64,000 bases of DNA from a bacterium (GTDB taxonomy: Bacteria > UBA8248 > JACPRG01 > G963555815): NCBI GenBank assembly GCA_965218795.1, contig OZ244653.1:5024001-5088000 (forward strand), written 5' to 3'. Within the stretch, counting starts at the first letter, position 1. Every line of letters begins with the position of its first letter. Under the pieces are notes generated by a model. The model was not told where the DNA came from and did not search any database. It worked only from the letters and a program-made list of their open reading frames with translations. The position numbers were made by a program, and so were the translations under genes. Shown in pieces: positions 23,747-30,542 of the stretch.

Positions 23747-24028
23747 ATGACGACACGACGGCGATTCACGGGGGAGTTCAAGGCGAAGGTAGCGCTGGAA
23801 GCACTGCGCGGGGACAAGACGGTTCAAGAAATCGCGGTGCGGCACAAGGTGCATCCGAACCAGGTGAGCGCCTGGAAGCAGCGAGCGGTGGAGGGGCTGA
23901 AGGAGGTATTCTCCAAGGGGGCGGAGCGGGCACGTGGGGACCATGAGGTGGAGATCCGGGACCTGCATGCGAAGATCGGGGAGTTGACGGTGGAGCGGGA
24001 TTTTTTGTCCAAAGGGCTCAAGTGGTGA
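23747..24028 (+). CDS. IS3 OrfA (HTH)
   Basis: RRRFTGEFKAKVALEA, VHPNQVSAWK, KIGELTVERDFL; T-run at about 24001-24006 as candidate slip site. Confidence 0.9.
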   Translation: MTTRRRFTGEFKAKVALEALRGDKTVQEIAVRHKVHPNQVSAWKQRAVEGLKEVFSKGAERARGDHEVEIRDLHAKIGELTVERDFLSKGLKW

Positions 24029-24954
24029 GCCGGGAGGGACGCAGGGCCATGATCCGTCGCGACCATCCCAAACTCAGCTTGAGCCGTCAATGCCGCCTGC
24101 TTTCCATCAGCCGATCCTCGCTGTACCACACGCCCAAGGGCGAGAGTGCGCAGAACCTGGCGTTGATGCGGCGGATCGATGAGTTGTTCTTGAAATACCC
24201 GTTCTACGGCAGCCGCCAGATGGTCCGTCATTTGTGGCGCGAGGGAGTCCGTGTCGGTCGTCACCGGGTTCGGCGTCTGATGCGGCTGATGGGCCTACAG
24301 GCCATCTACCAAGCGCCGAGAACCACCAGACCACATCCCGAACACCGGGTTTATCCCTATCTTCTCAAGGGACTCGCCATCGAGCGGCCCAATCAGGTCT
24401 GGACCGCGGACATAACCTATATCCCCGTCCAGCGCGGCTTCCTGTACCTGGTAGCCGTCATGGACTGGGCCACCCGCCGTGTGCTCGCCTGGCGGCTGTC
24501 CAACACCCTGGATGCCCGCTTCTGCGTCGAGGCCCTGACCGAAGCCCTGGACCGCTACGGCCGGCCTCGGATCTTCAATACCGACCAAGGCAGCCAGTTC
24601 ACCAGCCTCGCGTTTACCGCTGTCCTCCAAGACGCCGGCGTCGCCATCTCCATGGACGGCCGGGGCCGATGCATGGACAACATCTTCATCGAGCGCCTCT
24701 GGCGTTCGCTCAAATACGAAGCGGTGTATCTGCACGAGCTCACCGACGGCTTCGCAGCCCAAAGGGCCATTGCCAAGTGGCTCGACTTCTATAACACCGA
24801 AAGACCTCATTCCGCCCTGGCTGGCTCTACCCCGGCCGAGGCCTACGAAAAAGGACTGCCGCCGCAGATGCAGGCCAAGCCCCACCGCTTGCCTGCCCCT
24901 CTGCCGGCTCAACCAGAACAGAAAGACGGGTCAAACAGGACGCTGGCGGCATGA
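24022..24954 (+). CDS. IS3 OrfB DDE integrase-core transposase
   Basis: WTADITY, NTDQGSQF, DNIFIERLWRSLKYE, YNTERPHSAL. Confidence 0.92.
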   Translation: MVSREGRRAMIRRDHPKLSLSRQCRLLSISRSSLYHTPKGESAQNLALMRRIDELFLKYPFYGSRQMVRHLWREGVRVGRHRVRRLMRLMGLQAIYQAPRTTRPHPEHRVYPYLLKGLAIERPNQVWTADITYIPVQRGFLYLVAVMDWATRRVLAWRLSNTLDARFCVEALTEALDRYGRPRIFNTDQGSQFTSLAFTAVLQDAGVAISMDGRGRCMDNIFIERLWRSLKYEAVYLHELTDGFAAQRAIAKWLDFYNTERPHSALAGSTPAEAYEKGLPPQMQAKPHRLPAPLPAQPEQKDGSNRTLAA

Positions 24955-25613
24955 TCAATGAACCGAATACACCTTCACTCAGCCGCCTAACTGTCCAAGA
25001 TAGTGGGACCACCTCATTCTACGAAAATCAAATCATTAGATATTCTACAAGAAACTCAAGAAACTGGCTTTTACGGTTGCATGGCCATCTCTATGGAAGG
25101 AGTGGTTTCTACACTCGATTGGTCGAGCGGGTATCGATCTGGAAGACGGGAAGTCCAGTCCCTTGGTTTGAGTACGTAGACCGCTATAAGGAGCGCCACC
25201 GAGAGAACATAGAAGAACTTATAGAATTATTGAAAGCGCGAGGGGTAAGGTTAGTGTTCGTTCTCCAACCACTTAGAAAAGGAGGATATCACGACGCCCG
25301 CCATCGAAATTTGCTAAAGCAACTTGAAAGCTTAGGAAAGCAGCGAGGCGTTGAGGTGTTGGACCCACGGCCTTTATTCAACAATCCTAAGTTGGACCGT
25401 CCTTCGTTTCACGATGTTGTTCATCTGACAGAGGAAGGGAACGAACTCCTAGCCCAATTTTTTGCTGAGCAGCTTCCCCAAAGATTCTCAGATCTCCGTT
25501 CGTCTCGCTGATTCCGTTGAGCTGCAACCCTGGAGTTTGGAGCTTGACCTTTCCTGGTATAGGACCAAGTGGGTTGAGAGTTTTCGGTTGTGATCATAGA
25601 GCGAAAAGTGGAT

Positions 25614-26670
25614 TTACCCCGTTTTTGTGGACAGTTTATGGCTGTCGTCCCCAGCCCTGATGTGGGCGACAGCCGGTGGACGTACAGCCTTCCCCAAGAG
25701 CGGTGGATAGGGTATCCCCGGAGGGTATGTCTTGACCACCTTTGGCTCGCTGCTCCGGGAAGCACCGGGGACGGTTCGAGCCGGACGATGAGCGTTGCGC
25801 ACTGCACGTGGCGTTTCCTTCGCCGCGGACCGCTCGAAGTCGTTGGGGCTGAGGTAACCCAGGGCCGAATGAGGACGGCGTGGGTTGTACCAGCCTTCGA
25901 TGAATTGGAAGATCGCCATGCGCGCTTCGGCCTGGGTACGGAACGAGCGCCGGTCGATGAGCTCGCACTCCAGCGTGGCAAAGAAGCTCTCGGCCATGGC
26001 GTTGTCGAAGCAATCCCCGGCCGACCCGGTCGAGGGAACCACCCCCATCTCCCGGCACCGCTTGCCGAAGGCAAGCGAAGTGTACTGCGAGCCCTGGTCG
26101 GAATGATGCACGACCCCTTCGGGCCGGCGCTGTCCCAACGCCATGTTCAGGGCCCCGAGCACCCGTTCGGTGCGAAGATGGTGGGTCATGGACCAGCCCA
26201 CCACCCGGCGGCTGAACACGTCGAGCACGACCGCCAGGTACACGAACCCCGTCCAGGTCGGCACGTAGGTGATGTCGGCCACCCAAATCCGGTCCGGCGC
26301 ATCGGCCTGGAACTGGCGTTCGACCCGGTCCGGGGCCGCACGATGGCTCTGGTCCACGCGCGTAGTGCGCGTGCCTCGGCGTCGGCTCACCCCGCCCAAG
26401 CCCGCCTCGCGCATCAGACGAGCTACCCGTTTGCGGCTCACCCGACGCCCGTTGGCCGTCAACTCGGCATGCATCCGAGGCGCCCCGTAGGTGCCGCCAG
26501 ATGCCTCGTGGATGACCCGGATCGTGCCCCCCAACGCCTCCGTCGTGCTTCGCACGATTGGAACGCCCACGGCTTCGCCACGTGTAGTACCCGCTGGAGG
26601 AGACACCCAGCACCCGGCACATCGTGGCCACCCGATGACAGGCTTGGTTCGCCTTCACGAGCCCGAAGAC
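25614..26670 (-). pseudogene. IS3 OrfB transposase with a frameshift near 26545
   Basis: MCRVLGVSSSGYY is in one frame; TYGAPR, WVADITY, HHSDQGSQY, DNAMAESFF are in another. Confidence 0.85.
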
Positions 26671-26718
26671 CTCCCCGGCACCGAGCCGGTCTCCCGTGCG
26701 AACCAGACCGCGGCTTTC

Positions 26719-28083
26719 CTAAGAAACTGCCTCCGCACCCTCCTGCAGAACATACCCCAGAGAAGCGGCCCGTCGGCGAAGATTCTTCACCACACGCTGA
26801 CGATAACGCTCTTCATAGTATGAAGCGCCGGGATCCACATACTTCTGCCCATATCGCAGCGTGTTGTATAGCAGGACCGCAATCTTTCGGGCGGTGGCAG
26901 TCACCGCCTTGGCCTTGCCGATCCGCGCCGACAATCGACGATAGAACGCTCCGAGCGCGGTCTCGGTCCTGCCCACCGCCACCGCCGCCAGACGCAGCAC
27001 CGCAGCGGCCCGATTCGACGTACGGCGCGTTCTCGAGGCCAGAACGCGTCCACCGGAGATCTTGTTCGCCGGCGCCAATGCAAGCCACGACGTGAAGTGC
27101 TTCGCGCTCGGCCATCGAGACATATCCGTCCCACATTCGGCGATGATCTTCAGCGCAAGGTAGGGGCCGACTCCGTGAATCTGGGTCAGGTCTACGCCGA
27201 GCAACGCATACAGGGCGCCTCGTACGTCGAAGTTCAATCCGTTGGGCTGACGCGCCTTGTGCCGAGGCGCGGGCAGCGCCGCCGACGGCTCATCGACGCC
27301 ATCACTGAGGCGACCCAGGACCGCCTCGATTTCCTGGTCGCAGCGAGCCACTTGTGCTTGATACACATCGTACAGCTCCAGGGCCTGTCTCAGCGCAAAG
27401 ACGTGCTCGCGTTGGTAATGCCCGACAAGCGCTTCACGGATCGTCTCGCGTGAGGATTTACAACGGCTGTCGCGCCATGCCGCGAGTAAGTCGGGGTCGA
27501 CGACCCCCGACGCGATCGCCCGAATCATCCGCAGCCCCGTCACCCCCGTGATGTCGGACACAACATGGTGAAGCTGAACATTCATCTGGGTCAGCGCCTT
27601 TTGCATGTGTTGAATGTGCGCCGCTGCATAGTCCAGGAGGCGCTCGCGCTGTCTCAGGTAAGACCGCAACTCTGCGATCCCGCGAGTGGGGCGAAAACTG
27701 GCTCGCAACAAACCGTACTGGTGCAGCTGCTGCAGCCACTGCGCATCGTTCACGTCACTCTTGCGTCCCGGAACCGTCTTCACCTCCCGAGCGTTCACCA
27801 CGATCACTTCCAATCCATGCTCTTGAAGGATCTCGAACAACGGGATCCAGTAAACGCCCGTGGACTCCATCGCGACCGTCTCGACCCCAGCCTCTTCGAA
27901 CCAGTCGGCAAGACGCTGCAGGTCGTTGGTAAAGGTCTTGAAGGTGCGTACGGGCTCGTCAGTACCCTTCGATCCCACCGCGGCCACATGGATTCGCGAC
28001 CCAATGTCCACCCCCGCCGCATTGGGATGGACCACCGTCATGCCTCGGGAAGAACGTTTCGTCCTGCGCTTTGTACTCGCCAT
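26719..28083 (-). CDS. IS110 DEDD (RuvC-like) recombinase/transposase
   Basis: GVDIGS, AMESTGVYW, KSDVNDA; C-terminal GVGP, SWLALAP..ISGG serine motif; AAGGAG RBS. Confidence 0.95.
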   Translation of the reverse strand: MASTKRRTKRSSRGMTVVHPNAAGVDIGSRIHVAAVGSKGTDEPVRTFKTFTNDLQRLADWFEEAGVETVAMESTGVYWIPLFEILQEHGLEVIVVNAREVKTVPGRKSDVNDAQWLQQLHQYGLLRASFRPTRGIAELRSYLRQRERLLDYAAAHIQHMQKALTQMNVQLHHVVSDITGVTGLRMIRAIASGVVDPDLLAAWRDSRCKSSRETIREALVGHYQREHVFALRQALELYDVYQAQVARCDQEIEAVLGRLSDGVDEPSAALPAPRHKARQPNGLNFDVRGALYALLGVDLTQIHGVGPYLALKIIAECGTDMSRWPSAKHFTSWLALAPANKISGGRVLASRTRRTSNRAAAVLRLAAVAVGRTETALGAFYRRLSARIGKAKAVTATARKIAVLLYNTLRYGQKYVDPGASYYEERYRQRVVKNLRRRAASLGYVLQEGAEAVS

Positions 28084-28110
28084 GGGTCCCTCTCCTTAAT
28101 CATGTTGGGA

Positions 28111-28263
28111 GATGTCCGAGAGGCGGGACGGCGGTTCCCATCATTTTCCTAATCGGGCTCGTCGATCGACGGCGCCACAGTCAAGTCCGCAGCAGTCCCT
28201 GAACCACGTTTTTTGCGGGGTCATGATCCTCCAAAAAGCTGACGGTTGCTCCCCCCGGACATC
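28111..28263 (-). ncRNA. Candidate IS110 bridge/seek RNA
   Basis: Closing helix GATGTCCGGGGGG/CCTCTCGGACATC encloses two stem-internal-loop domains; TAGAAT just upstream; segments match target and element end. Confidence 0.65.
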
Positions 28264-28322
28264 GCACATTCTACGCTGCCCACCAAGTTTCCATTCGTCC
28301 AGGAAGACGCCGTCTTGTCCCG

Positions 28323-28576
28323 TTTTTTAGGATCTCCCGCTCTTCGCGAAGCTGACGGACCTCTCGACGAAGCCGCCGCAGCTCCTCGAGCTCCGTACTT
28401 GTCAGACCGTCCTCACGACGGCCCTCGTCGCGGTCGGCCTGGCGCACCCAGTTGCGAATCACCGAAGCAGAACACTCGAACTCCCGGGCCAGCTCCCCGG
28501 GCGTACGGCCCGAGCGAACCAACTCAACCATCTGGCGCCGGTATTCCGGCGCGTAGGGTGAATGAGTTTTCGCCAT
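28323..28576 (-). pseudogene. IS3 OrfA N-terminal part (continues at 26715 beyond the IS110)
   Basis: YAPEYRRQMVELVRSGR...IRNWVRQ...LRRLRREVRQLREEREILK. Confidence 0.88.
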
Positions 28577-28630
28577 CTGAACACCTCCTGCCCACAGTCT
28601 GAAGGTGTCCACAAAAACGGGGCAAATCCA

Positions 28631-28997
28631 GCCAGCCCACGGCTTGGCGCCGTGCCGTGGGCCTCACCAGTTTTTTGACAACAGCTCCTTCAGCGCCGCG
28701 TTGTCCAGTTGTGCCTCCGCCAGAAGTCGCTTCCCATTCTCCGCCTCCAGCTCGCGCAGACGACGGGTGCCGGATATCTCCATCCCCCCGTCCTTCGACT
28801 TCCAGCGGTACAACGTCTGCTCCGATATGCCATGGTGACGGCAGTTCTCGCGTGCCGTGGCGCCGGCCTCATGCTCGCGCAGCACCCCGACAATCTGCTC
28901 TTCGGTAAACCGTTTGCGTTTCATATCGAGTTCTCCTGTACTCAGCCTCTCCAGGAAAACTCCACATGCAATGGCCTGAATTACGGGGGGAAGGTCA
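28631..28997 (-). mobile_element. Truncated IS3-family (IS407-like) remnant: left IR plus OrfA (28664-28924)
   Basis: MKRKRFTEEQIVGVLRE...TLYRWK...LKELLSKNW; end TGACCTTCCCCCCG; OrfB cut off by the adjacent IS3. Confidence 0.8.
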
Positions 28998-29339
28998 AAT
29001 CGACCGCAGGTCTTTCATCCCGCCGGACTACACGATCATAGAAACTCCGTTGCCGCAGGGTGCCCTGAATCCCGAATTTCCAGGCCGCCCGCGGGGTGGC
29101 GAAATCGGGGCGGCACGTTGCCGTCGGGCCTCGGATTCTCAACCCGGTTCAGAACACCATCATTCCAGAGACTGGACGACCGGACCGCGCATTGGATTCA
29201 GGCCGGTAGCCTCTCCGAATCCGGATGTCTTCAGCTTCCGCGACATGCAGGGGTATGCGTATTCCGTGACGACGCTGGTAAGATAACGGGTTTCGGGTCG
29301 ACAACCGACTCTCATGGGAACCCCACCTTCCTTCGCGCC

Positions 29340-30542
29340 ATGACATCCACTCCAGACATGACCCGCTCAGGCCGCCGAGGACTGTACCACCGGAATTTTA
29401 TTCTGAACATTCTTGCGACCTTTATCTTCATGCTTAACTTCACGGCGTTTCATCTTCTCCCGCTGCTGGTGAAGGGGCTCGGAGGCACGGAAGCGGATAT
29501 CGGATTCATCGCCGCCACGGGGTGGATTGCCTCCTTTGTCTTCACCCCGATATCCGGAATGCTGGCGAGTCGGTGGGGCGGGAAGAGAATGCTTTTGTGC
29601 GGGGTAGTCTCCTTGACCCTGGGCGGGGCGGGCTTCCTGCTGGTTGGACGGATTGGACCGTTGATTTACCTTCTCCGTGTCTTCCAGGGGGTCGGCCTTG
29701 CCGTCGCATTGACGGCCGGCTATACGCTGGTCGCCGCTTTCAGCCCGGCGGCCCGCCGCGGCGAGGGCTACGGCATCCACATGGTCTTTACCCTTTTGCC
29801 GCATGCAATCGGTCCCTGGGCCGGTGAGACGGCCATCACGGCCGGGGGATTTCCGGCGCTCCTTCTGCTCGCCGCGGGTTTCGGAGTATTGTCCCTTCTG
29901 TTTGGCGCCATGCTCCGCTCCCCCGAAGGCGCTTGGGAACAAAAGTCCGCAACGTCCTATCCGGCGTTGGTGATCCGGCGTGAAATTTGGCCCGTCATGG
30001 GAACCATCCTGCTTCTGGGGTCGAGCTTCGGATCCGTCCAGACGTTCATCCCCACCTACATCAAGAGCCGAGGTTTCGAGACGGTCAGCTTCTTTTTCAT
30101 CACGTACACCATCGTCGCGGTATGCGTTCGAATTTTCCTGGGCCGACTCTCCGATCGGCTGGGCCGTCGCAGGATTATCCTTCCAAGTCTCTTGGGCATG
30201 GTGTTCGTCGTATCTCTTTTGGCCGTGGCGTCGCAGGCGGTGACATTTACGGCGGCTTCCATCCTGTTCGGTCTCAGCCAGGGACTTTCTCTTCCCACAC
30301 TGGGCGCGCTGCTCGTCGACCGGGTGGAAGAAATGGACCGGGGGCGGATTCTGGGCCTGTACACGGGGTTTTTCCATCTGGGCATATTTCTCAATACGTC
30401 TTCGATGGGGATCGTCGCTGCAAGGTTTGGATATCCACCGCTGTATGGGCTCACTGCGGCCGCGGCCGCGGCGGGCGTCATCCTCTTTGCCGTATATGAT
30501 CCGTCGCGCAGGTCCGGGCCGGCCCTGCCCGGAGGCGCTTGA
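29340..30542 (+). CDS. MFS transporter
   Basis: About 12 hydrophobic segments; GRLSDRLGRR motif A. Confidence 0.85.
   Translation: MTSTPDMTRSGRRGLYHRNFILNILATFIFMLNFTAFHLLPLLVKGLGGTEADIGFIAATGWIASFVFTPISGMLASRWGGKRMLLCGVVSLTLGGAGFLLVGRIGPLIYLLRVFQGVGLAVALTAGYTLVAAFSPAARRGEGYGIHMVFTLLPHAIGPWAGETAITAGGFPALLLLAAGFGVLSLLFGAMLRSPEGAWEQKSATSYPALVIRREIWPVMGTILLLGSSFGSVQTFIPTYIKSRGFETVSFFFITYTIVAVCVRIFLGRLSDRLGRRRIILPSLLGMVFVVSLLAVASQAVTFTAASILFGLSQGLSLPTLGALLVDRVEEMDRGRILGLYTGFFHLGIFLNTSSMGIVAARFGYPPLYGLTAAAAAAGVILFAVYDPSRRSGPALPGGA

Follow-up and report, generated by a model that had tools for sequence, protein, structure and literature searches.

The closest described counterparts of the element reported here are IS110-type insertion sequences (IS) that choose their sites with the help of an RNA. 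In ISEc21, an RNA from the upstream non-coding region picks the target, a conserved stretch of IS3-family transposase genes comprising the codons that surround the DDE motif's second D, and its relative ISMch6 provides a case of natural re-direction (PMC11187229). The guide order of ISEc21 is that of IS621, whereas IS1111-type elements reverse it (PMC11187229), and the natural targets of IS621 are repetitive extragenic palindromic (REP) sequences (PMC11208160, PMC11208158). In a 64,000-nucleotide stretch of a bacterial genome (hereafter the window; assembly GCA_965218795.1, contig OZ244653.1, positions 5,024,001 to 5,088,000), we find an IS110-family element lodged in the slippery A-run of an IS3-family element. 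Comparison with relatives from other genomes indicates that it very probably belongs to a widespread clade which a bridge RNA directs to an A-run inside the transposase genes of other IS. The target takes the form yT-AAAA-[AA]-(A/G)GC.. over ~13-15 bp, the IS3 window reading ..CCTAAAAAAAGCCGCGG.. at this point; the IS3 programmed -1 frameshift window is the chief target, and an analogous IS630-type A-run is used too. Homing of an IS110-type element to IS3 is already known from ISEc21. No printed account was found of a clade that homes to the frameshift run as such and to its IS630-type analogue: a literature search with supplements, ISfinder and TnPedia outside its range returned no description of IS110-type elements in frameshift or slippery sites, and the available passages of two 2026 preprints make no mention of IS110 in frameshift sites.

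The inner element is 1605 bp long and lies on the same strand as its IS3 host, which contributes ~1415 bp of its own DNA (coordinates of all features are given in Table 1). Its 454-residue open reading frame (ORF), with a TAG stop 1 nt short of the element end, combines an N-terminal DEDD (RuvC-like) domain (DEDD_Tnp_IS110, PF01548, E 4.5e-23) with a C-terminal Transposase_20 domain (PF02371, E 1.2e-13), the domain pair of the IS110 family, and scores 259 bits against the NCBIfam model NF033542 'IS110 family RNA-guided transposase' (cut-off 140). The host has ends TG...CA and the layout of an IS3-family element, with a helix-turn-helix (HTH) OrfA (Pfam HTH_Tnp_1), a DDE integrase-core OrfB in the -1 frame (Pfam HTH_21, rve, rve_3 and rve_2; 301 bits against NCBIfam transpos_IS3) and an A-run slippery site between the two.

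The boundaries of the IS110 element were set by comparison with two insert-free IS3 copies of this genome; at the slippery run these read GATCCTAAAAAAAGCC (in wider context GATCCTAAAAAAAGCCGCGG). With a slash marking the junction, the window reads CCTAAAAAA/CGGGAC on the left and TTAGG/AAAGCC (GTTTCTTAGG/AAAGCC) on the right. The filled site thus holds 6+3 A's where the empty site holds 7, and AA is therefore repeated, flanking the IS110 element. As expected for the family, its ends (CGGGAC... and ...TTAGG) show no terminal repeat by eye, only the short core repeat. The original prediction, made from the window alone, had placed the IS110 element in the A-run slippery site of the IS3 and reconstructed the target as CTA AAA AAA GCC (LKKA); the empty-site comparison confirms both, putting the insert inside the slippery heptamer, with the empty site read as LKKA in the OrfA frame and OrfB going on in the -1 frame. 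The insertion parts OrfA from OrfB, so that the host IS3 can no longer make the OrfAB transposase, while both inverted repeats are kept and OrfA is nearly full-length; the proposal that the IS3 was disabled with its repeats intact is therefore directly visible in the sequence. A separate frameshift in OrfB, which had been noted at ~26545, was traced to one extra G near 26540-26541 that is absent from the other three composites of the genome and from the contigs of two public runs.

Relatives were collected by a scan of one genome per species, which gave at least 499 relatives among 596 pattern-matching stretches; the best 80 loci (62-92% amino acid identity) were kept. Both junctions could be read for 72 copies, representing 44 lineages and 56 lineage-by-context combinations. 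The hosts include Acidobacteriota, Alpha-, Beta- and Gammaproteobacteria, Myxococcota and others. A transposase search of 40 related genomes at E up to 1e-30 matched none of them (0/40), and no close relative was found there. At the junctions, the left flank ends in at least six A's in 51/72 copies and in five A's in a further six (57/72 with five or more), and the right flank starts with GAA in 66/72. A transposase-gene match lies directly adjacent on the same strand in 52/72 copies and on the opposite strand in 2/72.

It was found that 42 of the 56 combinations sit inside transposase genes. IS3 elements account for 26 contexts (22 by tblastn and 4 by Pfam HTH_Tnp_1) and IS630-type elements (DDE_3, HTH_32/33) for 10; other contexts are rve+HTH_32 (3), DDE_Tnp_1_4 (2), Mu-transpos_C_2 (1), which we take to be IS21-like, and tandem arrays (2). 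The anticipated enrichment in IS3 frameshift windows holds for IS3 itself, but the target class is wider than had been proposed and extends to IS630-type elements and a few other transposase genes. A scatter over unrelated A-rich sites with no IS3 enrichment, the outcome named beforehand as contrary to the prediction, was not seen. At least two different contexts are found for each of seven lineages; one such lineage, for example, occupies an IS630-type element as well as two distinct IS3 elements.

In three genomes, the difference between an empty and a filled site is exactly the element plus AA; these are the source genome (G000) and two others, G045 (uninterrupted locus L119 versus L112) and G046 (L122, L123 and L125 versus L120, L121, L124 and L132). 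In the two further genomes, the uninterrupted host run is A7 for a Hyalangium IS3 and A8 for an IS630-type element, which confirms the AA repeat. A downstream ORF lies in the -1 frame at the uninterrupted IS3 (L119) and IS630-type (L122) sites, and in the cases checked the insertion site is the -1 frameshift run. Some IS630-type sites appear, to judge from their translations, to be in-frame KK codons as opposed to shift sites. A strict degenerate empty-site pattern matched in one of five other genomes, being too narrow for the other four; DNA queries for empty host copies found them in G046 and none in G044. Plasmid-borne copies from Citrobacter, Aeromonas and Agrobacterium were also checked, and all three follow a ..(E/K)(R/K)DILK codon run ending in A6. 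A 65%-identical member is carried on Citrobacter, Klebsiella and Enterobacter plasmids from clinical sources. On the Citrobacter freundii plasmid NZ_CP017059.1 (L136), the element follows an IS3 OrfA ..ERDILK run but has a non-IS3 flank on the right, with an IS66 element coming next.

We aligned the 239-nt left non-coding end of the element over 40 distinct relatives. It folds into two stem-loops with an internal loop in each, as in the RNAs of this family. In the four helices, 96.2% of the alignment cells are paired, as against 87.3 +/- 0.7 in shuffles (reached in 0/500), and 73 cells are changed on both sides as against 23 +/- 4.2 (0/500); controls in which the helices were slid gave pairing of at most 58%. 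One pair is G-U in all 40 sequences and a second in 15/40, and the RNA strand is therefore that of the transposase sense strand. The 5' side of the predicted target loop, ..GCUUUUU.., is complementary to AAAAAGC of the top strand, and its 3' side, ..CAAAAAAC.., has the very sequence of the left flank together with the first element base. This two-loop RNA supports the earlier suggestion that a guide directs the element to the A-run.

The loop segments co-vary with what they match, on both sides of the target and on the right-end side of the donor. The right end GTTTCTTAG is identical in 64/72 relatives, the remaining 8 having GTTTCTCAG or GTTTCATAG, and the donor segment becomes UCAGG or AUAGG exactly where the right end of a relative is TCAGG or ATAGG. 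A column-by-column scan for co-variation between flanks and left end was confounded and uninformative; anchored segments and re-pairing tests were used instead. The match of the guides to their own flanks beats all 10000 re-pairings on both sides (4.19 versus 3.42 +/- 0.13 and 4.67 versus 3.98 +/- 0.09). On the right side, the A's are followed by GC for IS3 targets and by CUU for IS630-type AFKK/NF targets, and one lineage matches its flank at 8/8 scored positions (+1 to +8). Natural re-targeting is seen in three cases, where GCAGGGAAAC goes with the flank GCAGGGAAA/C (L038), CAAGAAAC with CAAGAAA/C (L082) and GGCAAAC with GGGCAAA/C (L094 lineage).

The element resembles ISEc21 in being IS110-type, in its upstream non-coding region and in a target within IS3-family transposase genes, as far as the published description goes; the IS3 site used is a different one. 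With IS621 (PMC11208160, PMC11208158) it shares a DEDD plus Tnp-domain recombinase, an RNA in the left end with target and donor internal loops, and a 2-nt core repeated at both junctions; the C, often CG, that follows the A-run in the guide corresponds to the first bases of the element, as in the IS621 handshake guides. The IS621 protein, the only solved relative, is distant (phmmer E 1.9e-5; 328 residues as opposed to 454), and the core is AA in place of CT. The guide layout also departs from that of IS621 and ISEc21 as worded in the text of the papers, on which the comparison rests: here the 3' side of the target loop equals the top strand of the left flank, whereas the guide for the flank beside the RNA-bearing end is on the 5' side of the loop in the IS621 papers, and in ISEc21 the top-strand-complementary segment is 3' of the bottom-strand-complementary one (PMC11187229). 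As the order of the guides is reversed and the RNA-DNA geometry becomes the same if the target is turned, the recombination site seems, with respect to the cargo, to be used the other way round. The clade would then represent a distinct bridge-RNA layout with an AA core. Some IS1111-group elements home to conserved sequences of other mobile elements, namely transposon ends or integron attC sites; unlike the present clade, they have a downstream non-coding region, subterminal inverted repeats and no coding frameshift targets.

The source genome is a single 5.17-Mb contig of 60.5% GC. The 3-kb composite of IS3 plus IS110, which the prediction had proposed to look for elsewhere, is present at other loci, with four copies in all, each with the IS110 element at the slippery site; independent insertion of the four is improbable. 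Among them the IS110 parts differ only by one extra C in two copies, which breaks the transposase gene. These two copies lie at G000 4906699-4909735 and 2705675-2708215 (loci L033-L036); the extra base, equivalent to window position ~27634, splits the transposase ORF into matches of 161 and 306 residues, and the same base is seen in a contig of public run X1. One composite shares its point of truncation with the two empty copies, and two have an identical IS3 part at different loci, one of this pair with a CAT duplication. No target duplication, which in the IS3 family measures 3-4 bp, flanks the window composite or copy B; copy C has the 3-bp CAT on both sides. Most likely, to judge from these sequences, the four local copies descend from one insertion, after which the 3-kb composite spread by IS3 transposition and by recombination between IS3 copies. 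As it keeps both inverted repeats, the composite could be moved in trans by a related IS3, which the identical IS3 parts at different loci and the CAT duplication suggest but do not prove.

Potential sites in the source genome are few: among 339 A7 and 1521 A6 runs, the pattern yTA6(A/G)G(C/G) is fitted by only 8 sites. The perfect IS3 site occurs six times, four occupied and two empty, and three IS3 relatives with one mismatch at the site are empty. The most abundant IS3 of the genome (G000 176519-177929 and six further copies) is present in seven identical copies, all without an IS110 element; its run, CTGGCAAAAGC, has three substitutions in the left half-site, and a -1 shift from OrfA to OrfB is still needed. 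Contigs of public runs X1, X5 and X9 join position 26715 to 28323, the empty-site form, with sides of 22-36 nt and a likeness of 90. These may simply stem from the empty IS3 copies and carry no evidence on excision or circles.

Three other accounts of the data were considered. The site could reflect one chance insertion into an IS3, all else being passive co-propagation of the composite with no site preference. The four local composites, with their identical near flanks and mosaic backbones, and the two composites identical in their IS3 part are what such an account predicts within the source genome, but it would have to explain 44 lineages at the same site in hosts from several phyla and in IS of different families. 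Lineages found in two or more contexts amount to independent insertions into unrelated IS, G045 and G046 each hold both empty and filled copies, and the guides match the flanks and co-vary with them; we thus consider chance very unlikely. The transposase might instead prefer A-tracts through DNA shape or protein contacts, the RNA loops being irrelevant to the choice of site. The target is indeed dominated by its A-run, and the two A/U-rich guide segments are mutually complementary and could just form a stem. However, positions outside the A-run track the loops (GC for IS3 versus CUU for IS630-type targets), the GGCAAA, CAGGGAAA and CAAGAAA variants follow the loop sequences, and the full motif is fitted by only 8 of the more than 1900 runs of six or more A's in the source genome. 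An A-tract preference thus retains little probability. A short generic motif, found in IS only since it is scarce elsewhere in GC-rich genomes and with no selection for IS as such, is in keeping with the base composition of the source genome, where IS3 accounts for two of the eight motif sites and for the four occupied ones, and few instances of the motif lie elsewhere. Against this, the right-side guide extends to ~+8 and tells IS families apart, and re-targeted lineages again lie in transposase genes (IS21-like, DDE_Tnp_1_4, rve+HTH_32). We regard this account as very unlikely too, while noting that it overlaps with RNA-directed homing to other IS and is hard to separate from it.

Several points nevertheless weigh against an RNA-directed, IS-homing clade. 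The 80 loci are the best of 499 and no random sample; 5/56 contexts are IS3-like by the ..ERDILKK/AAAYFA.. motif only, on short contigs, and 7/56 were matched to no IS. In the source genome, ~200 nt of left flank are identical in all four composites and ~10% different from the two empty copies, and the 3' part of the window composite resembles a different IS3 subtype; four independent hits were accordingly rejected, in view of these shared flanks and the mosaic backbones. Since the relatives do not count as independent of one another, the shuffle and re-pairing tests overstate significance. A mutual-information scan for a guide matching the left end of the element gave no clear signal, an Rfam search of 25000-29500 at E up to 1 returned no matching family (only a sub-threshold Xoo2 hit, 22.3 bits versus a gathering score of 45), and a sigma-70 promoter scan of the integrated element (26600-28700) gave 0 sites. 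Finally, we infer the bridge RNA, the circle and transposition itself by analogy.

On the model of IS621 and ISEc21, the element would leave as a circle with the junction ..TTAGG-AA-CGGG.., one RNA loop would pair with the target and the other with the circle junction, and the DEDD transposase would exchange strands at the AA core. Such an exchange would make integration conservative and its orientation fixed; in nearly all cases the element lies in the orientation of the host transposase gene. If insertion and excision are both conservative, the element could act as a reversible off-switch for its host IS. Constrained in the host IS, and with a nucleotide sequence kept from phylum to phylum, the frameshift run could offer a target to rely on once the element has reached a new cell. 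An IS110 lineage with a GGCAAA guide, seen in another genome, sits in an IS3 reading ..TTGGCAAA/../AAAGCAAC, which matches the altered-run type. The seven-copy IS3 with its altered run and this distant lineage with a matching guide suggest, as a hypothesis, escape and pursuit between IS3 and IS110. Taken together, it is conceivable, though we would put it at rather less than an even chance, that the frameshift run, which IS3 and IS630 hosts cannot readily alter, serves the IS110 clade as a portable landing pad between phyla, with both sides co-evolving, mirrored use of the site and a reversible off-switch.

RNA-guided IS110 elements are under development as genome-writing tools, and their natural target logic is therefore of direct interest. 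The present clade appears to live almost wholly inside other IS, at a stretch that the hosts need for programmed frameshifting. It offers a tangible example of one kind of mobile element living as a parasite of others, and possibly a natural curb on IS3 and IS630 activity. Its guide and target variants form a ready-made set for working out specificity rules, with an AA core and an apparently mirrored guide order, and members on clinical Enterobacterales plasmids may affect the behaviour of IS3-type elements there.

Table 1 Features of the IS3-IS110 composite, in window positions.
Feature	Position	Strand	Evidence
Whole composite: IS3-family element carrying the IS110 element	25609..28630	-	inverted repeats agree at 24/25 first nt
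IS3 left inverted repeat (TGGATTTGCCCC...)	28606..28630	-	repeat match
IS3 OrfA, ATG (at 28576) to ...EREIL; now runs 17 codons into the IS110 end (..KNGTRRRLPGRMETWWAA, then stop)	28329..28576	-	Pfam HTH_Tnp_1, translation
Left junction: A6 from the slippery run, comprising the left target and the AA core	28323..28328	-	empty-site comparison
IS110-family element, 1605 bp (CGGGAC...GTTTCTTAGG)	26718..28322	-	empty-site comparison; same at four loci bar one 1-nt indel
Left non-coding end, 239 nt, encoding the candidate bridge RNA	28084..28322	-	alignment, fold
Target-binding stem-loop (predicted)	28202..28249	-	compensatory changes, flank match, co-variation
Target loop, 5' side UCAGCUUUUU	28233-28242	-	flank match
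Target loop, 3' side GCAAAAAAC	28208-28216	-	flank match
Donor-binding stem-loop (predicted)	28125..28199	-	compensatory changes, right-end match
Donor loop, 3' side UUAGGAAA, equal to element right end plus core	28145-28152	-	match, co-variation
IS110 transposase gene, 454 aa	26719..28083	-	Pfam, NCBIfam
IS110 right end GTTTCTTAGG	26718..26727	-	alignment of relatives
Right junction: AAA (repeated AA core plus last A of the run), then GCC	26715..26717	-	empty-site comparison
IS3 OrfB region, -1 frame; interrupted in this copy only, by an extra G near 26540-26541	25617..26714	-	domains, copy comparison
IS3 right inverted repeat	25609..25633	-	repeat match

Some 30-45 nt inside the left end, in a column shared by all relatives (window 28287-28292, minus strand), is a conserved (U)AGAAAC motif complementary to an invariant GTTTCT at the IS110 right end. 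Inspection by eye alone also showed a conserved TAnnnT motif at 28268-28273. Tandem head-to-tail IS110 copies were observed at L046 (3016-5920), L050 (3034-5949) and L096 (3046-5961), joined by TTAGG-AAA-C; the joints hold three A's, where a simple second insertion at the AA core would be expected to leave two. Two loci of one Vicinamibacterales genome (L099 and L101) have reciprocal hybrid flanks, one with IS3 on the left and DDE_Tnp_1_4 on the right and the other the converse, the pattern that recombination between a pair of IS110 copies, with its rearrangement of the genome, would be expected to leave. The closest relative (L037, 92% identical, on a 2153-base contig) has an IS3 OrfB on its right, with a linker 84% identical to that of the window; on the left, the flank is unrelated and the element end is partly masked as N.

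The composite itself sits amid other IS debris, comprising an IS3-family OrfA, another OrfB of IS3 type and a piece of an SGNH/GDSL hydrolase gene. The neighbouring OrfA (HTH_Tnp_1; window 28664-28924, minus strand) ends 7 nt from the left end of the composite and has an A6 run of its own at ~28663-28672, and further debris near the composite occupies 24022-24954 and 24951-25511, both on the plus strand.

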